From Syntrophomonadaceae bacterium (GTDB taxonomy: Bacteria > Bacillota > Dethiobacteria > DTU022 > UBA8154): a DNA stretch of 64,000 nt. The DNA lies in NCBI GenBank assembly GCA_007135125.1, contig SLJK01000032.1, positions 16,237-80,236 on the forward strand. Direction: 5' to 3'. Below are positions 2,937-40,605 of the stretch, piece after piece (position 1 is the stretch's first letter; each line of letters begins with the position of its first letter). Position numbers and translations under genes: made by a program. Under the pieces are notes generated by a model, which ran no database searches, was not told where the DNA came from, and worked only from the letters and a program-made list of their open reading frames with translations.

Positions 2937-4370
2937 GTGTATAAAGACAACCGAGAATTTATGAAAGCGCTGGAGGCTGCAGGAGAACTGGTTACCATTG
3001 ATCAGGAAGTGGACTGGGACATGGAAGCGGGAGCAATAGTCCGCAAGGTTTGTGAAGACAAGGCACCTTCTCCCCTGATGAACAAAATCAAGGATTACCC
3101 CGGGCATCGATACCTGGGAGCGCCCCTGGCAAACTACCGCAAGTTGGCCATAGCTATGGGCATGGATCCGGATAGCAGTATCCCTGAGATTGCTGCAGAA
3201 TACTTGGAGCGCACCAACAGAGAACCGGTAAAACCTGTTATTGTTGAAAAAGATCAGGCACCTTGCAAGGAAAATATTATTACAGGCGATGATGTTGACC
3301 TTTTTACTCTGCCTGCTCCCATGGTCCATGAAGGTGATGGGGGACGGTACCTGGCAACCTGGCATTTTGTGGTAACCAAGGACCCTGACAAGCAGGAAGT
3401 TAACTGGGGAATGTACAGGCAGATGGTTTATAATTCCAAAATAATGACCGGACCGCTATTTCCTTTTTCCGGTGGTGGCCAGGTTTTCCACGGGAAATAT
3501 GTTCCCCGCGGTGAGGCTATGCCTTTTGCTACTGTGATTGGCCCGGATCCCCTTGGTGCTATTGCGGGTTCCGCCCCCACAGCTATCCCTGAGCCGGAAT
3601 ATACGGGGCAGCTTTTGGGGAAACCTGTGGAACTGGTGAAATGTGAAACAGTGGATTTGGAAGTCCCCGCCAATGCCGAAATAATTATTGAGGGGTATAT
3701 TCTTCCTGATGTATCGATAGAGGAGGGACCTTTCGGTGAGTACACTGGTTACCGTACTTCTCCGAGAGATACTCGCACGGTTTACCAGGTAACTGCCATC
3801 ACCCATAGAAATGATCCCATAACCACCATTTCCAATATGGGTGTTCCCACCGACGAGGGGCAGCTTTTGCGTTCTTTCACCCTGGGTTTGGAAATGGATA
3901 GGATGCTTCGCAACCAGGGTATCCCTATAACGGGAGTGTATATGCTGCCCGAATCGACTCACCACCTGGTTGTAGTTGGAGTTAAGCCGCTTTATACTAA
4001 TATAGCGGCACAAATTGCTCAAACTGTTTTTGGTAGTTCGCTGGGTATGTGGTTCCATATGGTTGTGGTAGTAGATGATAAAACAGATATTTATAATTTC
4101 AACGAAGTTTTGCATGCCCTAAGTACTCGCTGTCATCCTGTAAACGGCATACATGTCTGGCAGGGAGTGGGGACACCCCTCTATCCTTTCCTCAGCGCGG
4201 CGGAAAGGAAGAAATCAGTAGGCCCTAAAGTTCTCTTTGACTGCACCTTCCCGTTGGACTGGGATCCATTAAGCGAGGTGCCCAGACTTGTTTCTTTCAA
4301 GACAGTTTATCCCCAGGAGATCCAGGACAAGGTTCTGGCCAACTGGGAAAAATATGGCTTTACAAAATAG
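2937..4370 (+). CDS. UbiD-family prFMN-dependent (de)carboxylase (phenylphosphate carboxylase alpha/beta-like)
   Basis: The ORF track starts at GTG 2928. GTG 2937 has better AGGAGG spacing and gives MYKDNREF…, typical of a UbiD N-terminus. About 478 aa, with UbiD-like blocks throughout (…GPFGEYTGYR…, …WHFVVTKD…). Confidence 0.8.
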   Translation: MYKDNREFMKALEAAGELVTIDQEVDWDMEAGAIVRKVCEDKAPSPLMNKIKDYPGHRYLGAPLANYRKLAIAMGMDPDSSIPEIAAEYLERTNREPVKPVIVEKDQAPCKENIITGDDVDLFTLPAPMVHEGDGGRYLATWHFVVTKDPDKQEVNWGMYRQMVYNSKIMTGPLFPFSGGGQVFHGKYVPRGEAMPFATVIGPDPLGAIAGSAPTAIPEPEYTGQLLGKPVELVKCETVDLEVPANAEIIIEGYILPDVSIEEGPFGEYTGYRTSPRDTRTVYQVTAITHRNDPITTISNMGVPTDEGQLLRSFTLGLEMDRMLRNQGIPITGVYMLPESTHHLVVVGVKPLYTNIAAQIAQTVFGSSLGMWFHMVVVVDDKTDIYNFNEVLHALSTRCHPVNGIHVWQGVGTPLYPFLSAAERKKSVGPKVLFDCTFPLDWDPLSEVPRLVSFKTVYPQEIQDKVLANWEKYGFTK

Positions 4371-4386
4371 TAAAGGAGGAAATATA

Positions 4387-4641
4387 ATGGCTCGCTATGA
4401 TGTTTTTATAAACAGCTTGGCAGATCTGCCTGAAGGAAAAGAGGTTCAACTTGCGATAAGGGATCTTTCGCCGGGAATTCATAAGTACTGCTATCAGGAT
4501 GTACTGGCCATGGTCTCTCCTGACCCCGAGAAATATGATGAAAAAATGCAGGTTCGTTATGGCAGGGGACAGGCACATCCACAACTATTCTCTATCAAAA
4601 TACAGGAGAATGTTGAAAGGATTCCGGAGCGATGGAGGTAG
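4387..4641 (+). CDS. small (85 aa) protein translationally coupled between two UbiD paralogs (candidate PpcC-like small subunit)
   Basis: The ORF track lists 4288-4641. The plausible start is ATG 4387, directly after the upstream stop and with RBS AAAGGAGGAAATATA. MARYDVFINSLADLPEGKEVQLAIRDL… The 3' end overlaps the next UbiD start by 10 nt. Confidence 0.5.
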   Translation: MARYDVFINSLADLPEGKEVQLAIRDLSPGIHKYCYQDVLAMVSPDPEKYDEKMQVRYGRGQAHPQLFSIKIQENVERIPERWR

Positions 4642-5999
4642 ACTTAAGAAGTTTTCTTCATACTTTAAAAGAAAATAAAGAACTTATAGAACTTGAGGAC
4701 GAAGTCAGCCCCCGTTACGAAGTTACTTCCATTTTCAAAGAGGTGCTGGGGGAGCAGGGAGGTCCGGCTGTCCTTTTGCACAATGTGAGCGGTTATCCCG
4801 GCCGGAAGTTGGCAGGGAACCTTTTGGCCAGCCGTGAAAAGATGGCTTTAGCCCTGGGGTGCCAGGTGGAAGATTTAAGGGACGCATATCTGAAAGGGCG
4901 CTTTGCTTCCCTGGAGCCTGTGCAGGTGCAAGGTAGTGCTCCGGCACAGGAAGAAACAGTGGCAGAAGAGATAGATCTTCTATCTCTTCTGCCCGCACCT
5001 ATTTTTCATCAGGGTGATGCCGGGCCTTACCTTACAGCAGGTGTGCTTTTGGCTAAAGATCCCGATACAGGGGTAATGAACAGTGGAATTCACAGGCTGC
5101 AACTAAAAGGCAAAACTAGGCTGGGGGTGTTTCTGGCTACACCGCCTCTGTCAAATTATTTCAAGAGATCTGAAGAAGAAGGTAAACCCCTGCAGGTGGC
5201 AGTAGCATTAGGTCTGCATCCAGCCGAGCTTTTAGCAGCAGCCGTTTCTCTTAAGGAGGGCATGAAAAGCAAGATTCATCTGGCCGGAGGTTTAGCCGGA
5301 CGAGGAATGCCGCTTACTCCAGCCAAAACCCTGGATATGATGGTGCCAGCCACGGCGGAAATTATCCTAGAGGGACATTTACTTCCTGGTATAAGAGAAG
5401 CAGAAGGACCTTTTGGAGAAAGTACCGGCTATTATTTTGAGGCGGAAAGCCCCATTTTGGAGATACAAGCGGTTACGTTTCGTAAGGATCCCATTCTTAC
5501 CGTTATTCCGCCCTGGGGAATCGAAACGGATATTATACTTGCAGTTTTTAGCGGAGCTGAACTGTGGAAGGAGCTGCACAGGGTTATTCCTGAAGTAAGA
5601 GATGTTACTTTTTTACCGGGCTCCCTCACTTTTCAGGGAGTTATCCAGGTGAGTGAATCACTTTCCAGGGAAAAAATAAGGCAACTGATTTACCTGGCTT
5701 TAAATTTGGATCGACGCCTGAAACACGTGATAGTGGTCGACGATGATGTGGATATTCATAGTTCTAGAGAGGTTTTATGGGCACTGGGGACTCGTTTTCA
5801 GGGCTCTACTGACCTCATTTGCCTCCCGGGCCTGGAAGGGTATGTTATTGATCCTTCCACCCAGGAAGGAGAAACAGCGAAACTTGGTTTTGATGCAACT
5901 GCACGACCGGAGGGGCCATATAGCAAGCGTTACCGGAGTCTTTCCCTTCCCCGGGAATCAATTTTAAAGGCAAAAAACATTCTGGAACAGAGGAGATGA
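4632..5999 (+). CDS. UbiD-family (de)carboxylase paralog
   Basis: 455 aa (MEVDLRSFLHTLKENKELIELEDEV…GPFGESTGYY…). Second complete UbiD paralog. Start overlaps the small ORF and the stop overlaps ubiX (ATGA). Confidence 0.8.
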   Translation: MEVDLRSFLHTLKENKELIELEDEVSPRYEVTSIFKEVLGEQGGPAVLLHNVSGYPGRKLAGNLLASREKMALALGCQVEDLRDAYLKGRFASLEPVQVQGSAPAQEETVAEEIDLLSLLPAPIFHQGDAGPYLTAGVLLAKDPDTGVMNSGIHRLQLKGKTRLGVFLATPPLSNYFKRSEEEGKPLQVAVALGLHPAELLAAAVSLKEGMKSKIHLAGGLAGRGMPLTPAKTLDMMVPATAEIILEGHLLPGIREAEGPFGESTGYYFEAESPILEIQAVTFRKDPILTVIPPWGIETDIILAVFSGAELWKELHRVIPEVRDVTFLPGSLTFQGVIQVSESLSREKIRQLIYLALNLDRRLKHVIVVDDDVDIHSSREVLWALGTRFQGSTDLICLPGLEGYVIDPSTQEGETAKLGFDATARPEGPYSKRYRSLSLPRESILKAKNILEQRR

Positions 6000-6614: not shown

Positions 6615-7139
6615 ATGGAAGAAATTATCGAAAGCAAGGAAATCTTTAACGGAAAAATTATCCGTGTCCGCCTGGATAAAGTAAGACTTCCCGATGGAAA
6701 GGAAAGTCAAAGGGAAATTGTGCAGCTCGGCGGCGCTGTAGCTATGGTGCCAGTTGATGAGAAAGGAAATATTTATTTCGTTAGACAATATAGAAAGCCC
6801 ATTGAAAAAGTTTTACTTGAAATACCGGCAGGGCGACTTGAACCGCCAGAAATTCCTGAGGATTGTGCTCGCCGGGAATTAGCAGAAGAGATCGGTTTGT
6901 GGCCGGATAAAATTAATAAACTTTCAGATTTCTTTTCCTCGCCTGGTTTTTCCAACGAGAATATCACTATATTTTTGGCCAGGAATTTGAGGAAGAGCAA
7001 AATGCGTCCGGATGAAGGAGAGTTTATTGATGTGGTATTATATCCTTTCTCTAAAGCATTAGCCATGATTAGTAGTGGAGAGATTCAGGACGGTAAAACA
7101 ATTGCGGGACTCCTGTTGGCCCATTATTTTCTGCAGTAG
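6615..7139 (+). CDS. NUDIX hydrolase (ADP-ribose pyrophosphatase NudF-like)
   Basis: 174 aa. Nudix box GRLEPPEIPEDCARRELAEEIGL (Gx5Ex7REUxEExGU). Confidence 0.8.
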   Translation: MEEIIESKEIFNGKIIRVRLDKVRLPDGKESQREIVQLGGAVAMVPVDEKGNIYFVRQYRKPIEKVLLEIPAGRLEPPEIPEDCARRELAEEIGLWPDKINKLSDFFSSPGFSNENITIFLARNLRKSKMRPDEGEFIDVVLYPFSKALAMISSGEIQDGKTIAGLLLAHYFLQ

Positions 7140-7212
7140 TAGTAATAGAAGAAGGTATTTTTCAATAGCGGTATCAGGTATATTTCAATATCTAAGAGTA
7201 AGAGGACTTTGG

Positions 7213-7250
7213 GGTATCTTTGTAGAATAGATACCTCACTTATTTTTTTA
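7213..7250 (+). terminator. rho-independent terminator after NUDIX gene
   Basis: Stem GGTATCT / AGATACC with a 9-nt loop, then a TATTTTTTTA U-tract. Confidence 0.5.
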
Positions 7251-7280
7251 TACCATATTTTATGGTAAGGGAGTGAACTT

Positions 7281-8384
7281 ATGGAAAAAATTTCGAAACG
7301 CCCCTGTTTAGATCAAATTACTCCTTATGTGCCCGGAAAACCTATTGAGGAGGTGGAAAGGGAGCTGGGGATAAAAGGAGTTATTAAATTAGCTTCCAAT
7401 GAAAATCCTCTTGGCCCTTCTTCTTTGGCTCAGGAGGCTATAAAGGAGTTTGCGCCTGAGGTAGGCATGTATCCTGATGGAAATTGCTTTTATTTAAAAG
7501 GAGAATTAGCCGATTATCTTGGGGTAACAGAAAAGAACATTGTTATGGGAAATGGAGCTGATGATCTTATCACCCTGGCCGGTCTTGCTTACTTGAACCC
7601 AGGGGATGAGATTATAATGGCGCAGCCCACTTTCTCACAATACGGATTTTCTGCCAGGCTTATGGATGCTATCCCGGTCAAAGTTCCGTCCCAGGATTTC
7701 CGTCATGACTTGAATGCTATAGCTGCAGCTATTACTGACAAGACGAAGATAATTTTTATCTGTAATCCCAACAATCCTACGGGCACCATTGTTACCAGGG
7801 AAGAGATGGAGACTTTCATTAAAAAGATCCCCACGAGTGTCCTGGTGGTTATTGACGAAGCATACTATGAATATGCCAGTGACCCTAAATATCCGCAGAG
7901 CATTGAGTTATTAAAAGAGGGTTATAATGTCTTTATCCTACGTACTTTTTCTAAGATATTCGGACTGGCTGGCTTGCGAGTAGGCTATGGATTGGCCCCG
8001 GAAAATGTTGTTACTGATATCAATACGGTTCGTGAACCTTTTAACGTAAATGCCATTGCCCAGTATGCTGCCAGGGCGGCGCTGAAAGACAAAAAACATG
8101 TCGAGGAAGGGCGCAGGATTAACGAGGAGGGCAAGATATACCTGGCAGAAGAATTTGAGCGCCTAAACCTTTTCCATCTTCCCACAGAAGCAAATTTTGT
8201 TTTTGTAGATGTAGGTGTGGATTCCCGCAAGCTTTTCCCGGTAATGTTGAAAAAAGGTGTTATTGTAAGAACAGGAGATATTTTTGGATATCCTGAGTTT
8301 ATCAGGTTAACTATTGGCACCCAGGAGCAAAATCGCCGTTTTATCAAAGCTTTTGAGGAGAGCATTAAAGAACTGCAAGGTTAG
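7281..8384 (+). CDS. hisC: histidinol-phosphate aminotransferase
   Basis: 367 aa. …LASNENPLGPS…, …FSKIFGLAGLRVGY… is PLP class-II aminotransferase and HisC-like throughout. RBS GGGAG. Confidence 0.85.
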   Translation: MEKISKRPCLDQITPYVPGKPIEEVERELGIKGVIKLASNENPLGPSSLAQEAIKEFAPEVGMYPDGNCFYLKGELADYLGVTEKNIVMGNGADDLITLAGLAYLNPGDEIIMAQPTFSQYGFSARLMDAIPVKVPSQDFRHDLNAIAAAITDKTKIIFICNPNNPTGTIVTREEMETFIKKIPTSVLVVIDEAYYEYASDPKYPQSIELLKEGYNVFILRTFSKIFGLAGLRVGYGLAPENVVTDINTVREPFNVNAIAQYAARAALKDKKHVEEGRRINEEGKIYLAEEFERLNLFHLPTEANFVFVDVGVDSRKLFPVMLKKGVIVRTGDIFGYPEFIRLTIGTQEQNRRFIKAFEESIKELQG

Positions 8385-13932: not shown

Positions 13933-15177
13933 TCAAGTAGTTTTAAAAATTGCCTCTGGCTCTGTATAATCCCTGGGGGAGGTGAAAAATTTTTTGTGTA
14001 GGCAGATACACTTTAGTTTTTTTCCCCTGGTAATAGTTCCGTTGTTACTCCCCAGCCCCAATATGCGGGTTCCGTTTTGTACCGCGATTCGCAGGATTTC
14101 CAGGGGGGAAAGCCCGGCCTGGTGAAAGAAAAGCAGTTCCTGATGATATCCAGCTTCCCATGTTACGCCGGGGGATCCCGTATCTGTTCCAATCCCCAGT
14201 GATACCCCCAGTTGTTGCGCTTTTTTTATGGCAGCGAGCTGTTCCTGCATAATATCTTGCAGCAATTCTCTTTCCGGTGATTTTTGTTCTTTTTTGTATA
14301 ATTTAAGTGCCGCTCCCACCGGCGCGACCGTGGGGACCCATGAGACTTTTCTTTCAGCCATTAATTCCAGGGTCTTTTCTTGAAGGAAATAGCCATGTTC
14401 TACTGAATGAACTCCTGCTTCCACCGCCATACGTACAGCATTATCCGAACTGGCATGGACCATTACCGGCAACCCTTTTTTTTCTGCTTTTTGTACGATT
14501 GCTCGCATTTCTTCAGCGGAGAATTGCAAAGCTCCTACTTTGCCTTTGCGGTGAAAACTAACCAGACCGGTTAGTACTACTTTTAATTGTGAGGCGCCCT
14601 CATCTTTGAGGCTGTTGATTAATTCTTCTGCCTCGTGCAGGTTATTAACTCCTTCGCCCCCCAGACCACTGCCGTAGCAACCCCGGCGGTACAGGGCTTT
14701 TCCGCAGCCAATTACCTGGGGATAGGCTGCTTTTTGGGGAACACTATAGTTTGGCAAGCTGTCCCCGGTTACCCGGAGGGAAGTGCCCCGATAATCACCT
14801 CCGTCCCGCAGGGCAACTAAACCGTTATTTGCAGCGATGCGGAGCCGTTTTTCCAGCACCTCTGCCGGAACCGGAGCAGTGAGACTTTTAAAACCATTTA
14901 TACCGTCCAGGGCCAGGTGGACATGGCAGTCCACAAAGCCGGGTATCAACAACCATTCGGAAGGCAGGGAAATGACTCTCCAGTCGGTGGGAGACCTGAA
15001 CTGTTCTCCTCTTTTCAGTACGCTGACCTGCTGTATCCTGTTGTTGCGCAAGTAAATGGCTACCCGGGCGCTTTTTTCACCCGCAGAGGGGCGAACCTCT
15101 TTGTCCAAGAAGAAGGTTACTGCTTCGGTCTCTATGATGACTTTCTCTTTTGCGGGTAAAATATACTGTTCCATCAA
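13933..15177 (-). CDS. amidohydrolase-family metal-dependent hydrolase
   Basis: 414 aa. LIPGFVDCHVHLALDG (HxH metal motif), …VHSVEHG…, GTDTG is a TIM-barrel amidohydrolase (imidazolonepropionase/chlorohydrolase-like). Confidence 0.7.
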   Translation of the reverse strand: MMEQYILPAKEKVIIETEAVTFFLDKEVRPSAGEKSARVAIYLRNNRIQQVSVLKRGEQFRSPTDWRVISLPSEWLLIPGFVDCHVHLALDGINGFKSLTAPVPAEVLEKRLRIAANNGLVALRDGGDYRGTSLRVTGDSLPNYSVPQKAAYPQVIGCGKALYRRGCYGSGLGGEGVNNLHEAEELINSLKDEGASQLKVVLTGLVSFHRKGKVGALQFSAEEMRAIVQKAEKKGLPVMVHASSDNAVRMAVEAGVHSVEHGYFLQEKTLELMAERKVSWVPTVAPVGAALKLYKKEQKSPERELLQDIMQEQLAAIKKAQQLGVSLGIGTDTGSPGVTWEAGYHQELLFFHQAGLSPLEILRIAVQNGTRILGLGSNNGTITRGKKLKCICLHKKFFTSPRDYTEPEAIFKTT

Positions 15178-15238: not shown

Positions 15239-16921
15239 TTAGGGTAGGGGCTTGAAGGTAGATATGTGTCCTCCCAGGGACTCTACTGTTTCTCCTTCAA
15301 CCAATATTTGCACGGCGTTTATCTCTTGCAATTGTGTCAGGGTTTGCACGATAGAATTCACCAGTACACTTTCTGCTTCACTGCCATAGCTTGCCTCAGC
15401 TATCGCTGAGGAAAAGTCCACGTAAGCTACGGCGTTTTCCACGTGTACTCCCAGCAATTCTGTATCTTCCGGGATAATCCTGCTGAGCTCCGGTTTCTCC
15501 GGGCCTTGAAGAAGTGCCTTTACAAGCTCTTGTGGTTCGGGCGGGGATTCAAAGCTTCTCTTTTCTTTTTCTAACCGGAAGCTGGTGTCCGTAATCTCCA
15601 TGTAGTACAGGGTATATTCCCCTGCCTCGGTTTGTGCAGTTTTAGCGGAAACCGCTTCCCAATTTATCTTGCTGCCGGCCACTTCTTCTAGAGTTTTTTC
15701 CAGTTGAAACGTTTCCCTGGTACTAACAATGAATATTTCGGCGTCGCTTTTAATCCACCTGGCGACATTACTTTCCCCGCTATATAGTTCAAACACGTTT
15801 TGAACGCCTTCGTCCACTTCCACCCTATCATTATCCAGTGTCCCTTGTTCACCACCAGCCATAAAATGGGGCTCATTGGGGGTAGTTGTATAATAGATGT
15901 CCAAAAAGTCTTTTCCACTTTCTCCCCTAAAGCGGAGCACATAGTCAAAAAAAGGCTCGTCCAAAAGACCTGCTTGTATCAATTCCATATCCGCAGGAGC
16001 AGCTGCAAGTGCTTGCCCAACTTCAGGCCATCCGTCTTTCACCTCTTCTAAAGAGATGGCCTGGTTTAGCTCTTCGACCTCTATTCCCGCTGGGAGTTCC
16101 CAGGCAAAACTATCTTCTTCCAGGGCAGGGTTAATCTCCAGCTCTTTGAACTCTACGGTCAAACTGGAGCCGTCCGGGTGGTTTAGAACTTTGCGCAAAG
16201 GCAGGTTAACAGATTCGTCTATCCACATCTGGTGAAAATCTTCGTCCCCGGGGAAGCGGTATTCCAGAACGGTTGTGTTACGCTCGAAAATTTTTTCTTT
16301 ACCCAGCACATTAATTTCTGCGGCTTCTTCTAATTCCCATACAGCAGTGCCGATATGGTAGCGCCACAGTTCTCTCTCCGGAAAAAGGTTATCTACCGTA
16401 ATTTTTGTGGGCCCGATAATTGCCAGTTTTTCTCCGTCGCTCAGATAATGTCTCTCCGAATTATTCCAGATGTGAAAGGCAGAATATTGTAGTGGTTTTT
16501 GATATTTTATCTCTATTGTTTCTAAAAACTCTGTTTCTCCTTCTCGTTCTGATCTTATCTCCACCACTCCCTTGTAACTATGCAGCTCTTCGTAAGCCTC
16601 TACAACGGCATGAACAATGTTCCCGTCGTTTATACCGGTTAGGTTGAACAGGTTCAGCCCCAATACCAGGAGGATAGCTGCCGCTGCGGCTACTGCTCCT
16701 TTAAAGGAGCGTGAACGAAAAAATGCAGCTGTGGTGTTGTATTTCCACGCTTTTTTTATTCTTTTTACAGCCCTTACAGTTTCAAACATTTTTTCCAGTT
16801 CTGCATCTTTTTCTGTTTCTTTTCCTTGCTCCTGGCGACGATAAAAAGCAGGTTTCTGCTCGTTTCGCAGATTATCTATGAATTCATCGATATATTCTTC
16901 ATGTCGATTCTCATTCATCAA
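15239..16921 (-). CDS. membrane-spanning anti-sigma factor with extracytoplasmic GerMN-like domain
   Basis: 560 aa. Short cytoplasmic N-terminus, one TM helix (AAAAAILLVLGLNLFNL), a large extracellular region, and a C-terminal block LVKALLQGPE…LGVHVENAVAYVDFS…QILVEGETVESLGGH (GerMN-type). Start overlaps the sigma gene stop. Confidence 0.55.
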   Translation of the reverse strand: MMNENRHEEYIDEFIDNLRNEQKPAFYRRQEQGKETEKDAELEKMFETVRAVKRIKKAWKYNTTAAFFRSRSFKGAVAAAAAILLVLGLNLFNLTGINDGNIVHAVVEAYEELHSYKGVVEIRSEREGETEFLETIEIKYQKPLQYSAFHIWNNSERHYLSDGEKLAIIGPTKITVDNLFPERELWRYHIGTAVWELEEAAEINVLGKEKIFERNTTVLEYRFPGDEDFHQMWIDESVNLPLRKVLNHPDGSSLTVEFKELEINPALEEDSFAWELPAGIEVEELNQAISLEEVKDGWPEVGQALAAAPADMELIQAGLLDEPFFDYVLRFRGESGKDFLDIYYTTTPNEPHFMAGGEQGTLDNDRVEVDEGVQNVFELYSGESNVARWIKSDAEIFIVSTRETFQLEKTLEEVAGSKINWEAVSAKTAQTEAGEYTLYYMEITDTSFRLEKEKRSFESPPEPQELVKALLQGPEKPELSRIIPEDTELLGVHVENAVAYVDFSSAIAEASYGSEAESVLVNSIVQTLTQLQEINAVQILVEGETVESLGGHISTFKPLP

Positions 16922-17444
16922 AATAACCCCCTTCTTGCAGTTTAGTTTTTAATGCCTGCACTGCTCTAAACTGCAGGCTTCTTACAGCGCCGGGTTTACG
17001 TCCCATTTTCATTGCCACTTCTTCCACTGACCATCCTTCTATAATTCGATAGGTTAAAACTTTTTTGTAGTCATGGCTAAGCTCCTGCAATGCTTGTTGA
17101 ACCATCAGTCTTTCTTCCACCTCCTGGCGCTGTTGAGGAATGTCCCACCCTTTTTCCCGGAGCTCTTCGACCGAAAGAGAACCAGGCCTTCTTCCCCTTT
17201 TTCGCCAGAGGTCGGTAAGCAGGTTGCGGGCAGAAGTAAAAAGGTATGCTTCTATCTTATCGTGTTCTATGTTATCATTACCTGTCTGGCGAAAGACTTT
17301 ATGAAAAGTTTCCTGGGTCAGTTCTTCAGCTTCTTCCTTGTTTTGTACTTTGTAATAAAAAAAACGGTACAGTCGTGGCCAGAACTCTTTTGCTCGCAAA
17401 TTTAATTCTTCCTGAATACTTGCAGCAGCTTGCTTCATCGACAA
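16911..17444 (-). CDS. ECF (group IV sigma-70) RNA polymerase sigma factor
   Basis: 177 aa with sigma-70 region 2 (…FWPRLYRFFYYKV…EAEELTQETFHKV…) and region 4 (…EGWSVEEVAMKMGRKPGAVRSLQFRA…). Confidence 0.8.
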   Translation of the reverse strand: MSMKQAAASIQEELNLRAKEFWPRLYRFFYYKVQNKEEAEELTQETFHKVFRQTGNDNIEHDKIEAYLFTSARNLLTDLWRKRGRRPGSLSVEELREKGWDIPQQRQEVEERLMVQQALQELSHDYKKVLTYRIIEGWSVEEVAMKMGRKPGAVRSLQFRAVQALKTKLQEGGYFDE

Positions 17445-17490
17445 TTCACCTCGATACCGCGCGATATCGTATTATTCATTCTAATATAAA

Positions 17491-17516
17491 AGACGATCAA
17501 GTTGCCTTTTCGTTAC
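17491..17516 (-). promoter_or_regulatory. candidate autoregulated ECF-type promoter (AAC-N16-CGTC)
   Basis: Minus strand reads GTAACG, 15-16 nt, then CGTCT, about 40 nt upstream of the sigma start. Confidence 0.3.
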
Positions 17517-17671: not shown

Positions 17672-18529
17672 ATGCCAAAAAAAGATGATGGTTTTATCTC
17701 AGAAAGTGAATATCCAGACGAAGAAACTTTGCGGGAGCTAAATGAGCTGTATCATGACGAAAAACTACCTGGGGATGATTCCAATCTTCGCAAGGGCAGA
17801 TCCCTTCTTATAAAACTTGCAGCTGTGATTATTGCGCTTGGTGTTATGGCTTTTTTCCTGGGCGGGACTTTAAGAGTTTTGCAGATGCCTTCCCTGGAAT
17901 TTTTGGAGAGCTCCAGGAAGCTAAGTCAAGATCCGGCGATCAGTGAATGGCAGGAGGCCGTGGTGCAGGTGCGAACCGCAGCCGGAATCGAGATTGTTAC
18001 TGCTGGACGAAGCGGGCGAAAGGGAAGCGGTTTTAATATCAGCGAAAGCGGCCATATTATAACCAACTGTCATCTGTTGGAAGGTGCTGACTCTGTAAGT
18101 GTCTTTTTCCCTGAGCAAGGAAGCCGCCGCGCTGTCAACTGGTTTTGTGCCGAAGATGATGATCTGGCAATAATCTCACTGGAGGGAGAGGGACTGCCTT
18201 ATGTGGATCTTAGCCGGGGTCCACAACCGGAGATCGGTGACCGGCTGATCATTATCGGGAACCCTTTGGGTTTTTCGGGAACGGTGATGCAAGGTGAGCT
18301 CTCCGGCTACGGCAGATTTTCTGCCTCTGGAGAGGCAGTGTTAGAGATCAAAGCGCCTATTCAGGCGGGTAGTAGTGGAAGCCCGGTTTTTGATGGGGAA
18401 GGAAAAGTTGTGGGAGTGGTTTTCGCGTCCCTGGCAGGTACTGAAGAAGGCGAAAGTAAGGGCCTGGCAGTACCTGTTTCCAGAGTTCATTCCCTTTTGG
18501 AGGAAAACTATGAAAATGTTTTTAAATAA
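17672..18529 (+). CDS. membrane-anchored trypsin-like (S1) serine protease, no PDZ
   Basis: N-terminal TM, then catalytic triad context …ITNCHLL… (His), …DDDLAIISL… (Asp), …GSSGSPVFDGEGKVVGV… (Ser). Confidence 0.75.
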   Translation: MPKKDDGFISESEYPDEETLRELNELYHDEKLPGDDSNLRKGRSLLIKLAAVIIALGVMAFFLGGTLRVLQMPSLEFLESSRKLSQDPAISEWQEAVVQVRTAAGIEIVTAGRSGRKGSGFNISESGHIITNCHLLEGADSVSVFFPEQGSRRAVNWFCAEDDDLAIISLEGEGLPYVDLSRGPQPEIGDRLIIIGNPLGFSGTVMQGELSGYGRFSASGEAVLEIKAPIQAGSSGSPVFDGEGKVVGVVFASLAGTEEGESKGLAVPVSRVHSLLEENYENVFK

Positions 18530-29467: not shown

Positions 29468-29543
29468 GCACCTGTAGCTCAGGGGATAGAGCACCGGATT
29501 CCTAATCCGGGTGTCGGAGGTTCGATCCCTCCCAGGTGCACCA
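29468..29543 (+). tRNA. tRNA-Arg (anticodon CCT), CCA encoded
   Basis: 76-nt cloverleaf folded by hand: acceptor GCACCTG/CAGGTGC, anticodon stem CCGGA/TCCGG, loop TTCCTAA, T-loop TTCGATC. Confidence 0.8.
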
Positions 29544-40530: not shown

Positions 40531-40605
40531 TGGTACGCCCGCAGGGATTCGAACCCCGACTTCAGGCTCCGGAGGCCTGCGTGATATCCCTTTCACCACG
40601 GGCGC
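40531..40605 (-). tRNA. tRNA-Arg (anticodon CCG), CCA encoded
   Basis: 75-nt cloverleaf on the minus strand: acceptor GCGCCCG, anticodon loop CTCCGGA, T-loop TTCGAAT. Confidence 0.8.

Follow-up and report, generated by a model that had tools for sequence, protein, structure and literature searches.

An extracytoplasmic function sigma factor gene and its overlapping gene for a putative membrane anti-sigma factor with an RseB/MucB-like outer module in Dethiobacteria

Which part of a membrane-bound regulator would face the signal, and which of the genes around it belong to the same system, are the questions raised by a locus on contig SLJK01000032.1 of a Syntrophomonadaceae bacterium of the Dethiobacteria (assembly GCA_007135125.1). 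There, a gene for a sigma factor of the extracytoplasmic function (ECF) type is followed by one for a large single-pass membrane protein ending in a GerMN domain, and a serine protease gene lies divergently on the other side. A first-pass annotation of the 64-kb stretch analysed here (positions 16,237 to 80,236 of the contig, hereafter the window) took the membrane protein for an anti-sigma factor, proposed GerMN as an unusual sensor module, and placed the protease in the signalling cascade or in the regulon. Our analysis favours, with a probability of about 0.6, an autoregulated pair of ECF sigma factor and membrane anti-sigma factor in which a module of the RseB/MucB type, carried in cis on the anti-sigma factor itself, forms the outer region. 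The elements of the pair, in window coordinates, are as follows.

16911..17438, minus strand: ECF (group 4) sigma factor gene, 175 amino acids from ATG 17438; the open reading frame opens at TTG 17444
15239..16918, minus strand: putative membrane anti-sigma factor gene, 559 amino acids from ATG 16918
16712..16921, minus strand: cytoplasmic N-terminal segment, presumed sigma-binding, residues 1-70
16631..16699, minus strand: single transmembrane helix, residues ~75-97, with a conserved alanine run (AVAAAAAILLVLGL)
16067..16624, minus strand: LolA-like (RseB/MucB N-terminal-like) domain, residues ~100-285
15647..16066, minus strand: RseB/MucB C-terminal-like domain, residues ~286-425
15242..15625, minus strand: C-terminal GerMN domain, residues ~433-560, confined to one clade

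The sigma gene and its membrane partner are paired throughout the family

Both genes exist as first described, and the pairing of an ECF sigma factor with a co-transcribed single-pass membrane protein was confirmed by Pfam and NCBIfam matches, by the overlap of the two genes and by the presence of one transmembrane helix. The sigma reading frame spans 16911..17444 on the minus strand, with its likeliest start at ATG 17438, which is preceded by a GAGGTGA ribosome-binding site. The resulting protein of 175-177 residues matches Sigma70_r2 (E = 1e-11) and Sigma70_r4_2 (E = 3.7e-11) and scores 71.3 bits against TIGR02937 (sigma70-ECF), for which the cut-off is 42.9. It falls below the cut-off of every NCBIfam equivalog, the best being the BldN family at 99.7 bits versus 206. 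Judged from the sigma-2 and sigma-4 domains found in its sequence and from its small size, the gene is an ECF-type sigma-70 gene.

The reading frame of the partner, 15239..16921 on the same strand, has 560 codons. We take ATG 16918 as its likeliest start, because it yields 559 residues, the length of a 98%-identical database protein (P0001), and also makes the gene overlap the sigma stop codon by 8 nt, in an ATGA-type arrangement that recurs in orthologous loci. On the Kyte-Doolittle scale the protein has a single hydrophobic segment, at residues ~75-97, whose N-terminal flank carries Lys and Arg. Since basic residues flank the helix N-terminally, the predicted topology is N-in/C-out, leaving ~70 residues in the cytoplasm and ~460 outside, in good agreement with the ~470-residue extracellular region of the first-pass annotation.

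A word-indexed search returned 55 relatives of the membrane protein: 19 long forms (509-562 residues) with the Germane domain, 35 short forms (424-522 residues) that cover the first ~75% of the query and lack Germane, and one fragment. In a profile search of 1.84 billion representatives, 414 proteins were found at E <= 0.001 and 41 clusters at E <= 1e-30. The family is thus small. Its members stem from anaerobes that are uncultured or have been little studied; soda-lake sediments, the deep subsurface and digesters are the habitats of the uncultured Dethiobacteria, 'Syntrophomonadaceae' and other Bacillota concerned, and there are also members in Ca. Contubernalis and, more distantly, Tindallia. 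The closest genome locus (L007) is 73% identical to the window. In every locus for which upstream sequence is available, an orthologous ECF sigma gene lies directly upstream of, and overlaps, the gene for the membrane protein. In Clostridia of the Lachnospiraceae and Mahellales type there are distant relatives of ~560 residues (E 1e-19 to 1e-39), and their genes too follow an ECF sigma gene without a gene in between; for those of the Lachnospiraceae type, at E ~1e-19 to 1e-28, the overlap is seen as well.

The cytoplasmic segment is among the best-conserved regions of the protein in the family alignment. It carries two conserved motifs, FIDxL..KP..Y and then E.EK.FETVRAVKR, with invariant or near-invariant columns at F14, I15, L18, K23, P24, Y27, E43, E47, R50, A51, V52 and R54, and it is modelled as three helices (residues 3-19, 25-31 and 40-64). 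Within the transmembrane helix, A80 and A81 are invariant and L85 nearly so, and this alanine-rich stretch resembles the alanine-rich end that intramembrane cleavage exposes in Bacillus subtilis RsiW. A sigma gene followed by the gene of a membrane protein is the standard layout of ECF systems. Because of this layout, the universal coupling to an overlapping sigma gene, the conserved cytoplasmic segment and the invariant alanines of the helix, we consider it probable from genomic context that the membrane partner is an anti-sigma factor, one that would bind sigma through its cytoplasmic segment.

The outer region is modelled as an RseB/MucB-type module

An AlphaFold2 model computed from an alignment of 25 family members (mean predicted local distance difference test score, pLDDT, of 78) contains three well-folded external modules, at residues ~100-285, ~286-425 and ~433-560. 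When this model was compared with the PDB using Foldseek, the top matches were RseB (3m4w, 2v42 and 2p4b) and MucB (6in9), with E ~1e-11 and alignments of ~330 columns that take in almost all of the RseB chain. LolA proteins came next (~190 columns), and then GerM. A second, C-terminal domain of the RseB type therefore follows the LolA-like domain in the model, and the part conserved across the family, as predicted, is a complete two-domain RseB/MucB-type module in the same order, fused to a membrane anchor.

Profile searches point in the same direction at lower scores. Sub-threshold matches to DUF2092, MucB_RseB and LolA in the window protein are located around residues 195-283. Of the 25 members, 24 match MucB_RseB at E <= 1 (best 5.5e-7) and 19 match DUF2092. 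Distant relatives pass the MucB_RseB threshold at 30-35 bits and have a second domain that touches DUF4367; in B. subtilis SsdC, DUF4367 is what comes after the LolA-like part (10.1101/2025.01.13.632879). The first-pass annotation had also suggested a DUF4179 or RsgI-like region; domain prediction detects neither in the N-terminal part of the window protein, and DUF4179 appears weakly in the distant relatives. Public databases label members of the family as 'LolA family', 'outer membrane lipoprotein-sorting protein', 'GerMN domain-containing' or 'MucB/RseB N-terminal domain-containing'.

The systems closest in organization are sigmaE-RseA-RseB of Escherichia coli and AlgU-MucA-MucB of Pseudomonas aeruginosa. 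These share with the present pair an ECF sigma factor, a single-pass membrane anti-sigma factor, an operon that opens with the sigma gene followed by the anti-sigma gene, and an outer two-domain module in which a LolA-like domain precedes a small C-terminal one. RseB and MucB are separate periplasmic proteins, however, whereas here the module is a covalent part of the membrane protein. Other differences are that the present proteins resemble RseB only marginally in sequence (E 0.08-0.14), that the window protein carries an added GerMN domain, and that the host organisms have Gram-positive Dethiobacter among their relatives. The cytoplasmic domain of the window protein, unlike that of RseA, matches neither RseA_N nor other anti-sigma models.

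The sigma operon is preceded by a conserved ECF-type promoter motif

One element lies upstream of the sigma gene, at the place where the first-pass annotation had read an AAC-N16-CGTC promoter.

17492..17516, minus strand: ECF-type promoter motif GTAAC-N16-CGTC, with AAC as the -35 and CGTC as the -10 element, ~54 nt upstream of the sigma ATG

The motif GTAAC-N16-CGTC occurs a single time in the window, where 0.16 occurrences are expected, and at least one occurrence was found in 15 of 100 shuffles. The bare form, AAC-N16-CGTC, was found twice versus 3.0 times expected, which is no excess over chance. Of 26 related loci, ~20 have AAC-N15-18-CGT(C/A) at a distance of 50-130 nt (mostly 50-90 nt) before the sigma start, and the consensus is cgtAAC-N16/17-CGTC-wt.t.AtAATAGA. 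When both strands of 369 kb of related DNA were scanned with a stricter version of the motif, ~19 matches lay at that position upstream of sigma genes and ~5 at other places. The promoter call is well supported because the motif is conserved across loci and specific in its position, and not on account of window statistics. This phylogenetic footprint predicts that the sigma operon probably has an ECF-type promoter and is autoregulated, as had been proposed.

The same combination of traits is familiar from RsiW and RsiV, ECF anti-sigma factors of Bacillota that undergo regulated intramembrane proteolysis, which are single-pass, N-in proteins with a large extracytoplasmic sensor and an alanine-rich transmembrane helix and are encoded behind an autoregulated AAC...CGT promoter. 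The sensor fold of the window protein differs from theirs, and zf-HC2 was undetected in it by Pfam.

A conserved ATTAGA at 17480-17485 on the minus strand lies downstream of the promoter motif. It is part of a TAtAATAGA-like element located 4-12 nt downstream of the -10 CGTC, seen in the window (17480-17491, minus strand), in L007, L011, L012, L014 and L027, and in other loci; in many of them a perfect sigmaA-type TATAAT forms part of it. The element might serve as an operator or mark the start-site region, or it might be a second promoter that overlaps the first.

A model for signalling and the evidence that weighs against it

If the membrane partner acts as we propose, its short conserved N-terminal cytoplasmic domain would hold sigma at the membrane, and the RseB/MucB-type module, fused to it through one alanine-rich helix, would be exposed outside. 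By analogy with RseA-RseB, the module may shield the juxtamembrane region in the resting state. Engagement of the module by an envelope-derived ligand or partner would release this shielding, the most plausible candidates being a lipid-linked cell-envelope intermediate bound in the LolA-like cavity or, as for GerS, a cell-wall enzyme. Regulated proteolysis could then follow, with a site-1 cut, intramembrane cleavage and cytoplasmic degradation triggered by exposure of the alanine-rich end, and the freed sigma would transcribe its own operon from cgtAAC-N16-CGTC together with a further regulon.

Several observations weigh against this reading. The window protein scores below threshold both for MucB_RseB (PF03888; 14.5 versus 22.3 bits) and for DUF2092 (20.5 versus 21.2 bits), and the Pfam model of the RseB C-terminal domain is matched by no family member, so that the homology to RseB rests mainly on predicted structure. 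The helices of the N-terminal segment are modelled at a pLDDT of only 52-70, and this segment has no match to a known anti-sigma domain among Pfam or PDB profiles: the zf-HC2, RseA_N and RsgI_N profiles of Pfam are unmatched by the whole protein and by 13 N-terminal segments, and none was found in the PDB search. Neither the window nor the 369 kb of related loci contains a convincing second site of the promoter motif, as would be expected of a regulon member. Among 31 loci, no protease family recurs near the pair as a candidate for the site-1 or site-2 step. Finally, close relatives such as Dethiobacter are Gram-positive (PMC5609068), and lipopolysaccharide (LPS) is therefore excluded as the signal.

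Two further N-terminal profile matches, to a haemagglutinin (E = 1.2) and to DUF5829 (E = 0.015) in the PDB and Pfam searches, were judged to be noise.

Some of these points would fit another explanation, in which the 559-residue protein is an SsdC-like envelope morphogenesis or assembly protein, co-transcribed with sigma and under its control, and sigma itself is regulated otherwise. RseB and MucB sense LPS in diderms; SsdC (YdcC) of B. subtilis is a membrane-anchored RseB-like protein of a monoderm in which the module does not signal (PMC7769602). Like the window protein, SsdC belongs to the Bacillota and combines an N-terminal transmembrane anchor with a LolA-like domain, followed in SsdC by DUF4367, and a homologue was reported in Dethiobacter alkaliphilus by Luhur et al. 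(PMC7769602). The N-terminal segment without an anti-sigma domain match would suit such a role, as would relatives of ~340 residues (E ~1e-13) that consist of a transmembrane helix and an RseB-like part and are devoid of the N-terminal segment. However, SsdC has a cytoplasmic tail of 6 residues, no sigma partner and no GerMN domain, and acts in spore cortex and shape (PMC7769602), whereas the present family has a conserved cytoplasmic domain of ~60 residues and is always coupled to an ECF sigma gene. The overlap with the sigma stop codon is kept in every locus, deep relatives included, and no alternative anti-sigma candidate is conserved nearby among the 31 loci. The gene layout, moreover, is the one that is standard for ECF systems. 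On balance we regard an SsdC-like role under sigma control as unlikely, and retain the anti-sigma factor with a cis RseB/MucB-type module as the favoured explanation.

The GerMN domain is a lineage-specific addition

The C-terminal domain on which the first-pass annotation had focused is genuine: Germane/GerMN (PF10646) matches residues 437-547 over its full length (E = 1e-24, above the gathering score), and the model has the fold of GerM. Its assignment as the sensor module, in contrast, did not hold up. GerMN is absent from 35 of the 54 relatives, and the proteins that bear it group together, as one clade nested among the short forms, when the core region is analysed by neighbour joining. 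In L037, a short form without GerMN even occupies the same chromosomal locus as the long form of the window. Because most relatives are without GerMN and its bearers are monophyletic, we reject it as the sensor of the family; it is a lineage-specific accessory and not the core sensor.

The nearest relatives of the fused domain are stand-alone GerMN proteins of ~200 residues, with 54-56% identity over ~95% of the domain, whose genes have housekeeping and sporulation-type neighbours and lie away from any sigma gene. The simplest history is that such a stand-alone paralogue was recruited once onto the C-terminus, where it replaced the tail of the short forms. These forms end in an invariant ...KEGH (C-termini of P0020-P0054 in the alignment; L004, 6300-6320), and the profile match reaches exactly to the last residue of the KEGH-ending proteins; the tail might serve as a metal ligand, or as a tag recognised by a protease or a PDZ domain. 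GerMN was considered for the distant ~560-residue Clostridia relatives too, and rejected since none of them has a Germane match. Eight of these sigma-linked relatives (P0077, P0084, P0089, P0092, P0094, P0097, P0106 and P0109) carry another C-terminal extension, of ~110-130 residues, which has no Pfam match and is not GerMN. As distant relatives bear a different extension at this place, the C-terminus of the family appears to be a swappable slot.

Known GerMN fusions are with an amidase, GMAD1 (as in LpqB), GMAD2 and LysM, and binding of peptidoglycan or carbohydrate has been proposed for the domain; no fusion to an anti-sigma factor is described (PMC2732212). Full-text searches pairing GerMN or Germane with anti-sigma likewise returned nothing relevant. 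GerM of B. subtilis and LpqB of actinobacteria differ from the window protein in being lipoproteins, with two GerMN domains or with GerMN and a propeller, and stand outside sigma regulators. In the GerMN-bearing clade, the most likely role of the domain is to tether the sensor, or to tune it, by way of peptidoglycan or a protein partner.

A second gene with GerMN, encoding a Cu_amine_oxidN1+GerMN protein, lies directly upstream of sigma on the same strand in three loci (L004, 3333-4283; L021, 5942-6907; L035, 2405-3343). It is confined to the short-form clade (P0021, P0024 and P0030) nearest to the GerMN-fused clade and is suggestive of a functional link between GerMN and the sigma system. We considered a Rosetta-stone argument for such a link and found it weak, given that the three loci share clade and synteny and that the relatives of the fused domain are unlinked to the pair. 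The arrangement counts as a single event because of this shared synteny.

These observations bear on a variant of our reading. It keeps a genuine sigma/anti-sigma pair, with an outer module that, instead of binding a lipid ligand, contacts a cell-wall hydrolase or a sporulation complex and would report peptidoglycan remodelling or the stage of sporulation. Precedents for protein contact are GerS with CwlD, the LolA-like GerS working by binding this amidase (10.1101/2025.01.13.632879), and GerM as part of the SpoIIIA-SpoIIQ complex; cortex assembly is affected by SsdC (PMC7769602). A fusion of GerMN with Amidase_3 occurs in Halothermothrix and another with the MtrB-associated LpqB, the domain was proposed to bind peptidoglycan (PMC2732212), and the Cu_amine_oxidN1+GerMN gene lies next to sigma in the neighbouring clade. 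On the other hand, no amidase or sporulation gene is conserved beside the pair in the 31 loci, the GerMN-neighbour arrangement is a single event in one clade with shared synteny, and signalling by protein contact is proposed by analogy. We therefore hold this variant to be rather unlikely, although it retains the pair itself.

The divergent protease and other neighbours are not conserved with the pair

Two genes flank the pair in the window.

17672..18529, plus strand: membrane-anchored, PDZ-less S1C serine protease gene, 285 amino acids, divergent from the sigma gene
13933..15177, minus strand: amidohydrolase gene, 61 nt downstream of the anti-sigma gene, weakly Xaa-Pro-dipeptidase-like

The first-pass annotation saw in the protease either the site-1 protease of the cascade or a regulon member. 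Together with GerMN as the anti-sigma sensor, this amounts to an explanation of the locus in its own right, and parts of it find support. The GerMN domain is truly present by profile and by fold. The protease matches Trypsin_2 (89.2 bits, 5.6e-25), its translation contains the triad motifs TNCH, DLAII and GSSGSP, and with a hydrophobic segment at its N-terminus it is predicted to be anchored in the membrane with the catalytic domain outside, similar in sequence to DegS and HtrA. It shares with the sigma gene a divergent intergenic region of 227 nt, and this arrangement is kept in L007.

Co-conservation, however, fails. Of the 31 loci, L007 alone has the protease orthologue beside the pair, and there collinearity with the window extends over the entire neighbourhood. 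In L037 the gene order is as in the window, running from a threonine-aldolase-like lyase (60% identity) through sigma, anti-sigma, amidohydrolase and the RNase-H-like gene to MurC, but the 464 nt between lyase and sigma hold no remnant of a protease. Relatives of the protease form a widespread PDZ-less S1C family of ~270-310 residues in anaerobic Bacillota; a 46%-identical orthologue lies between psd/pssA and sufCD, and another in a codY-region context. One contig with a protease orthologue and one with a short-form sigma/anti-sigma pair come from the same sample, and are different contigs. The 285-residue protein has no PDZ domain by Pfam and scores 82.9 bits against the DegS model TIGR02038 (cut-off 422.95), and its scores against the HtrA models likewise fall far short of the cut-offs. 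The intergenic region contains no AAC...CGT motif directed towards the protease.

The protease was accordingly rejected as a conserved partner on the evidence of synteny, its absence from L037, the unrelated contexts of its orthologues and the census of neighbours in the 31 loci, and with the loss of co-conservation the genomic argument for linking it to the pair falls. Since GerMN is missing in about two thirds of the family, including the short form at the same locus in L037, an explanation built on GerMN as sensor and on this protease as dedicated partner is improbable. Action of the protease on the anti-sigma factor in trans would be compatible with the synteny. In E. coli, degS is also unlinked to rpoE-rseABC.

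In L044, a 46%-identical protease (4001-4822) and an amidohydrolase 45% identical to that of the window (7017-8252) lie ~2 kb apart, which hints that gene order around these loci has been reshuffled.

When the neighbours within 4 kb were clustered for the 31 loci, none besides sigma was universal. The most recurrent were MurC, the RNase-H-like gene and the amidohydrolase, which belong to ordinary synteny blocks of sub-lineages. The amidohydrolase gene follows the anti-sigma gene in L007, L022 and L037 as it does in the window, an arrangement unconserved in the rest of the family, and there is no terminator-like site in the 61-nt gap; in this sub-lineage it is possibly co-transcribed with the pair. 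Other neighbours are specific to single lineages: a serpin divergent from sigma, a rhomboid intramembrane protease encoded 156 nt downstream in Ca. Contubernalis, a protein with a BON domain, and PspA, which lies two genes upstream in the Clostridia relatives (sites at L002, 2897-4378; L006, 6551-7237; L001, 6895-7794; L039, 1224-1898). None of the four recurs across the family, and the rhomboid protease and the serpin serve as leads for the proteolytic step.

In L012 (16486-17624), a second, identical sigma gene is followed by a split anti-sigma copy near the contig end; this is probably an assembly repeat and not a real duplication. An Rfam search of the window returned two tRNAs only, at 29468-29540 (plus strand) and 40534-40605 (minus strand), and none in the region of the pair.

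Significance of an RseB/MucB-like module in these bacteria

RseB and MucB are the textbook sensors of LPS in the envelope stress response of Gram-negative bacteria. We found no description of a combined RseB-like and anti-sigma architecture in the searchable literature, and the main text of the ECF re-classification does not mention GerMN, DUF4367, DUF2092 or LolA (PMC7826278). Practical impact is likely to be moderate, because the family is small, its hosts are uncultured or little studied, and everything beyond the architecture is inferred. If our reading is correct, the signalling role of RseB and MucB would survive without LPS, which raises the question of the ligand that is sensed in Gram-positive-type bacteria. 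The widespread GerMN domain would gain a second link to membrane signalling, after LpqB-MtrB, and experiments would be offered a compact version of the RseA-RseB logic in one protein.

More speculatively, Gram-positive-type Dethiobacteria and some Clostridia may have kept an RseB/MucB-type sensor that controls an ECF sigma factor, fused to an anti-sigma domain of a new type. This possibility is put forward tentatively. Were it true, these proteins would stand, as a living intermediate, between the sigmaE-RseA-RseB pathway of diderms and Bacillus SsdC, which is independent of sigma, and would bear on the question of a diderm ancestor for the Firmicutes; the re-targeting of such a sensor to peptidoglycan or to the sporulation machinery would then be illustrated by the GerMN-tipped clade.

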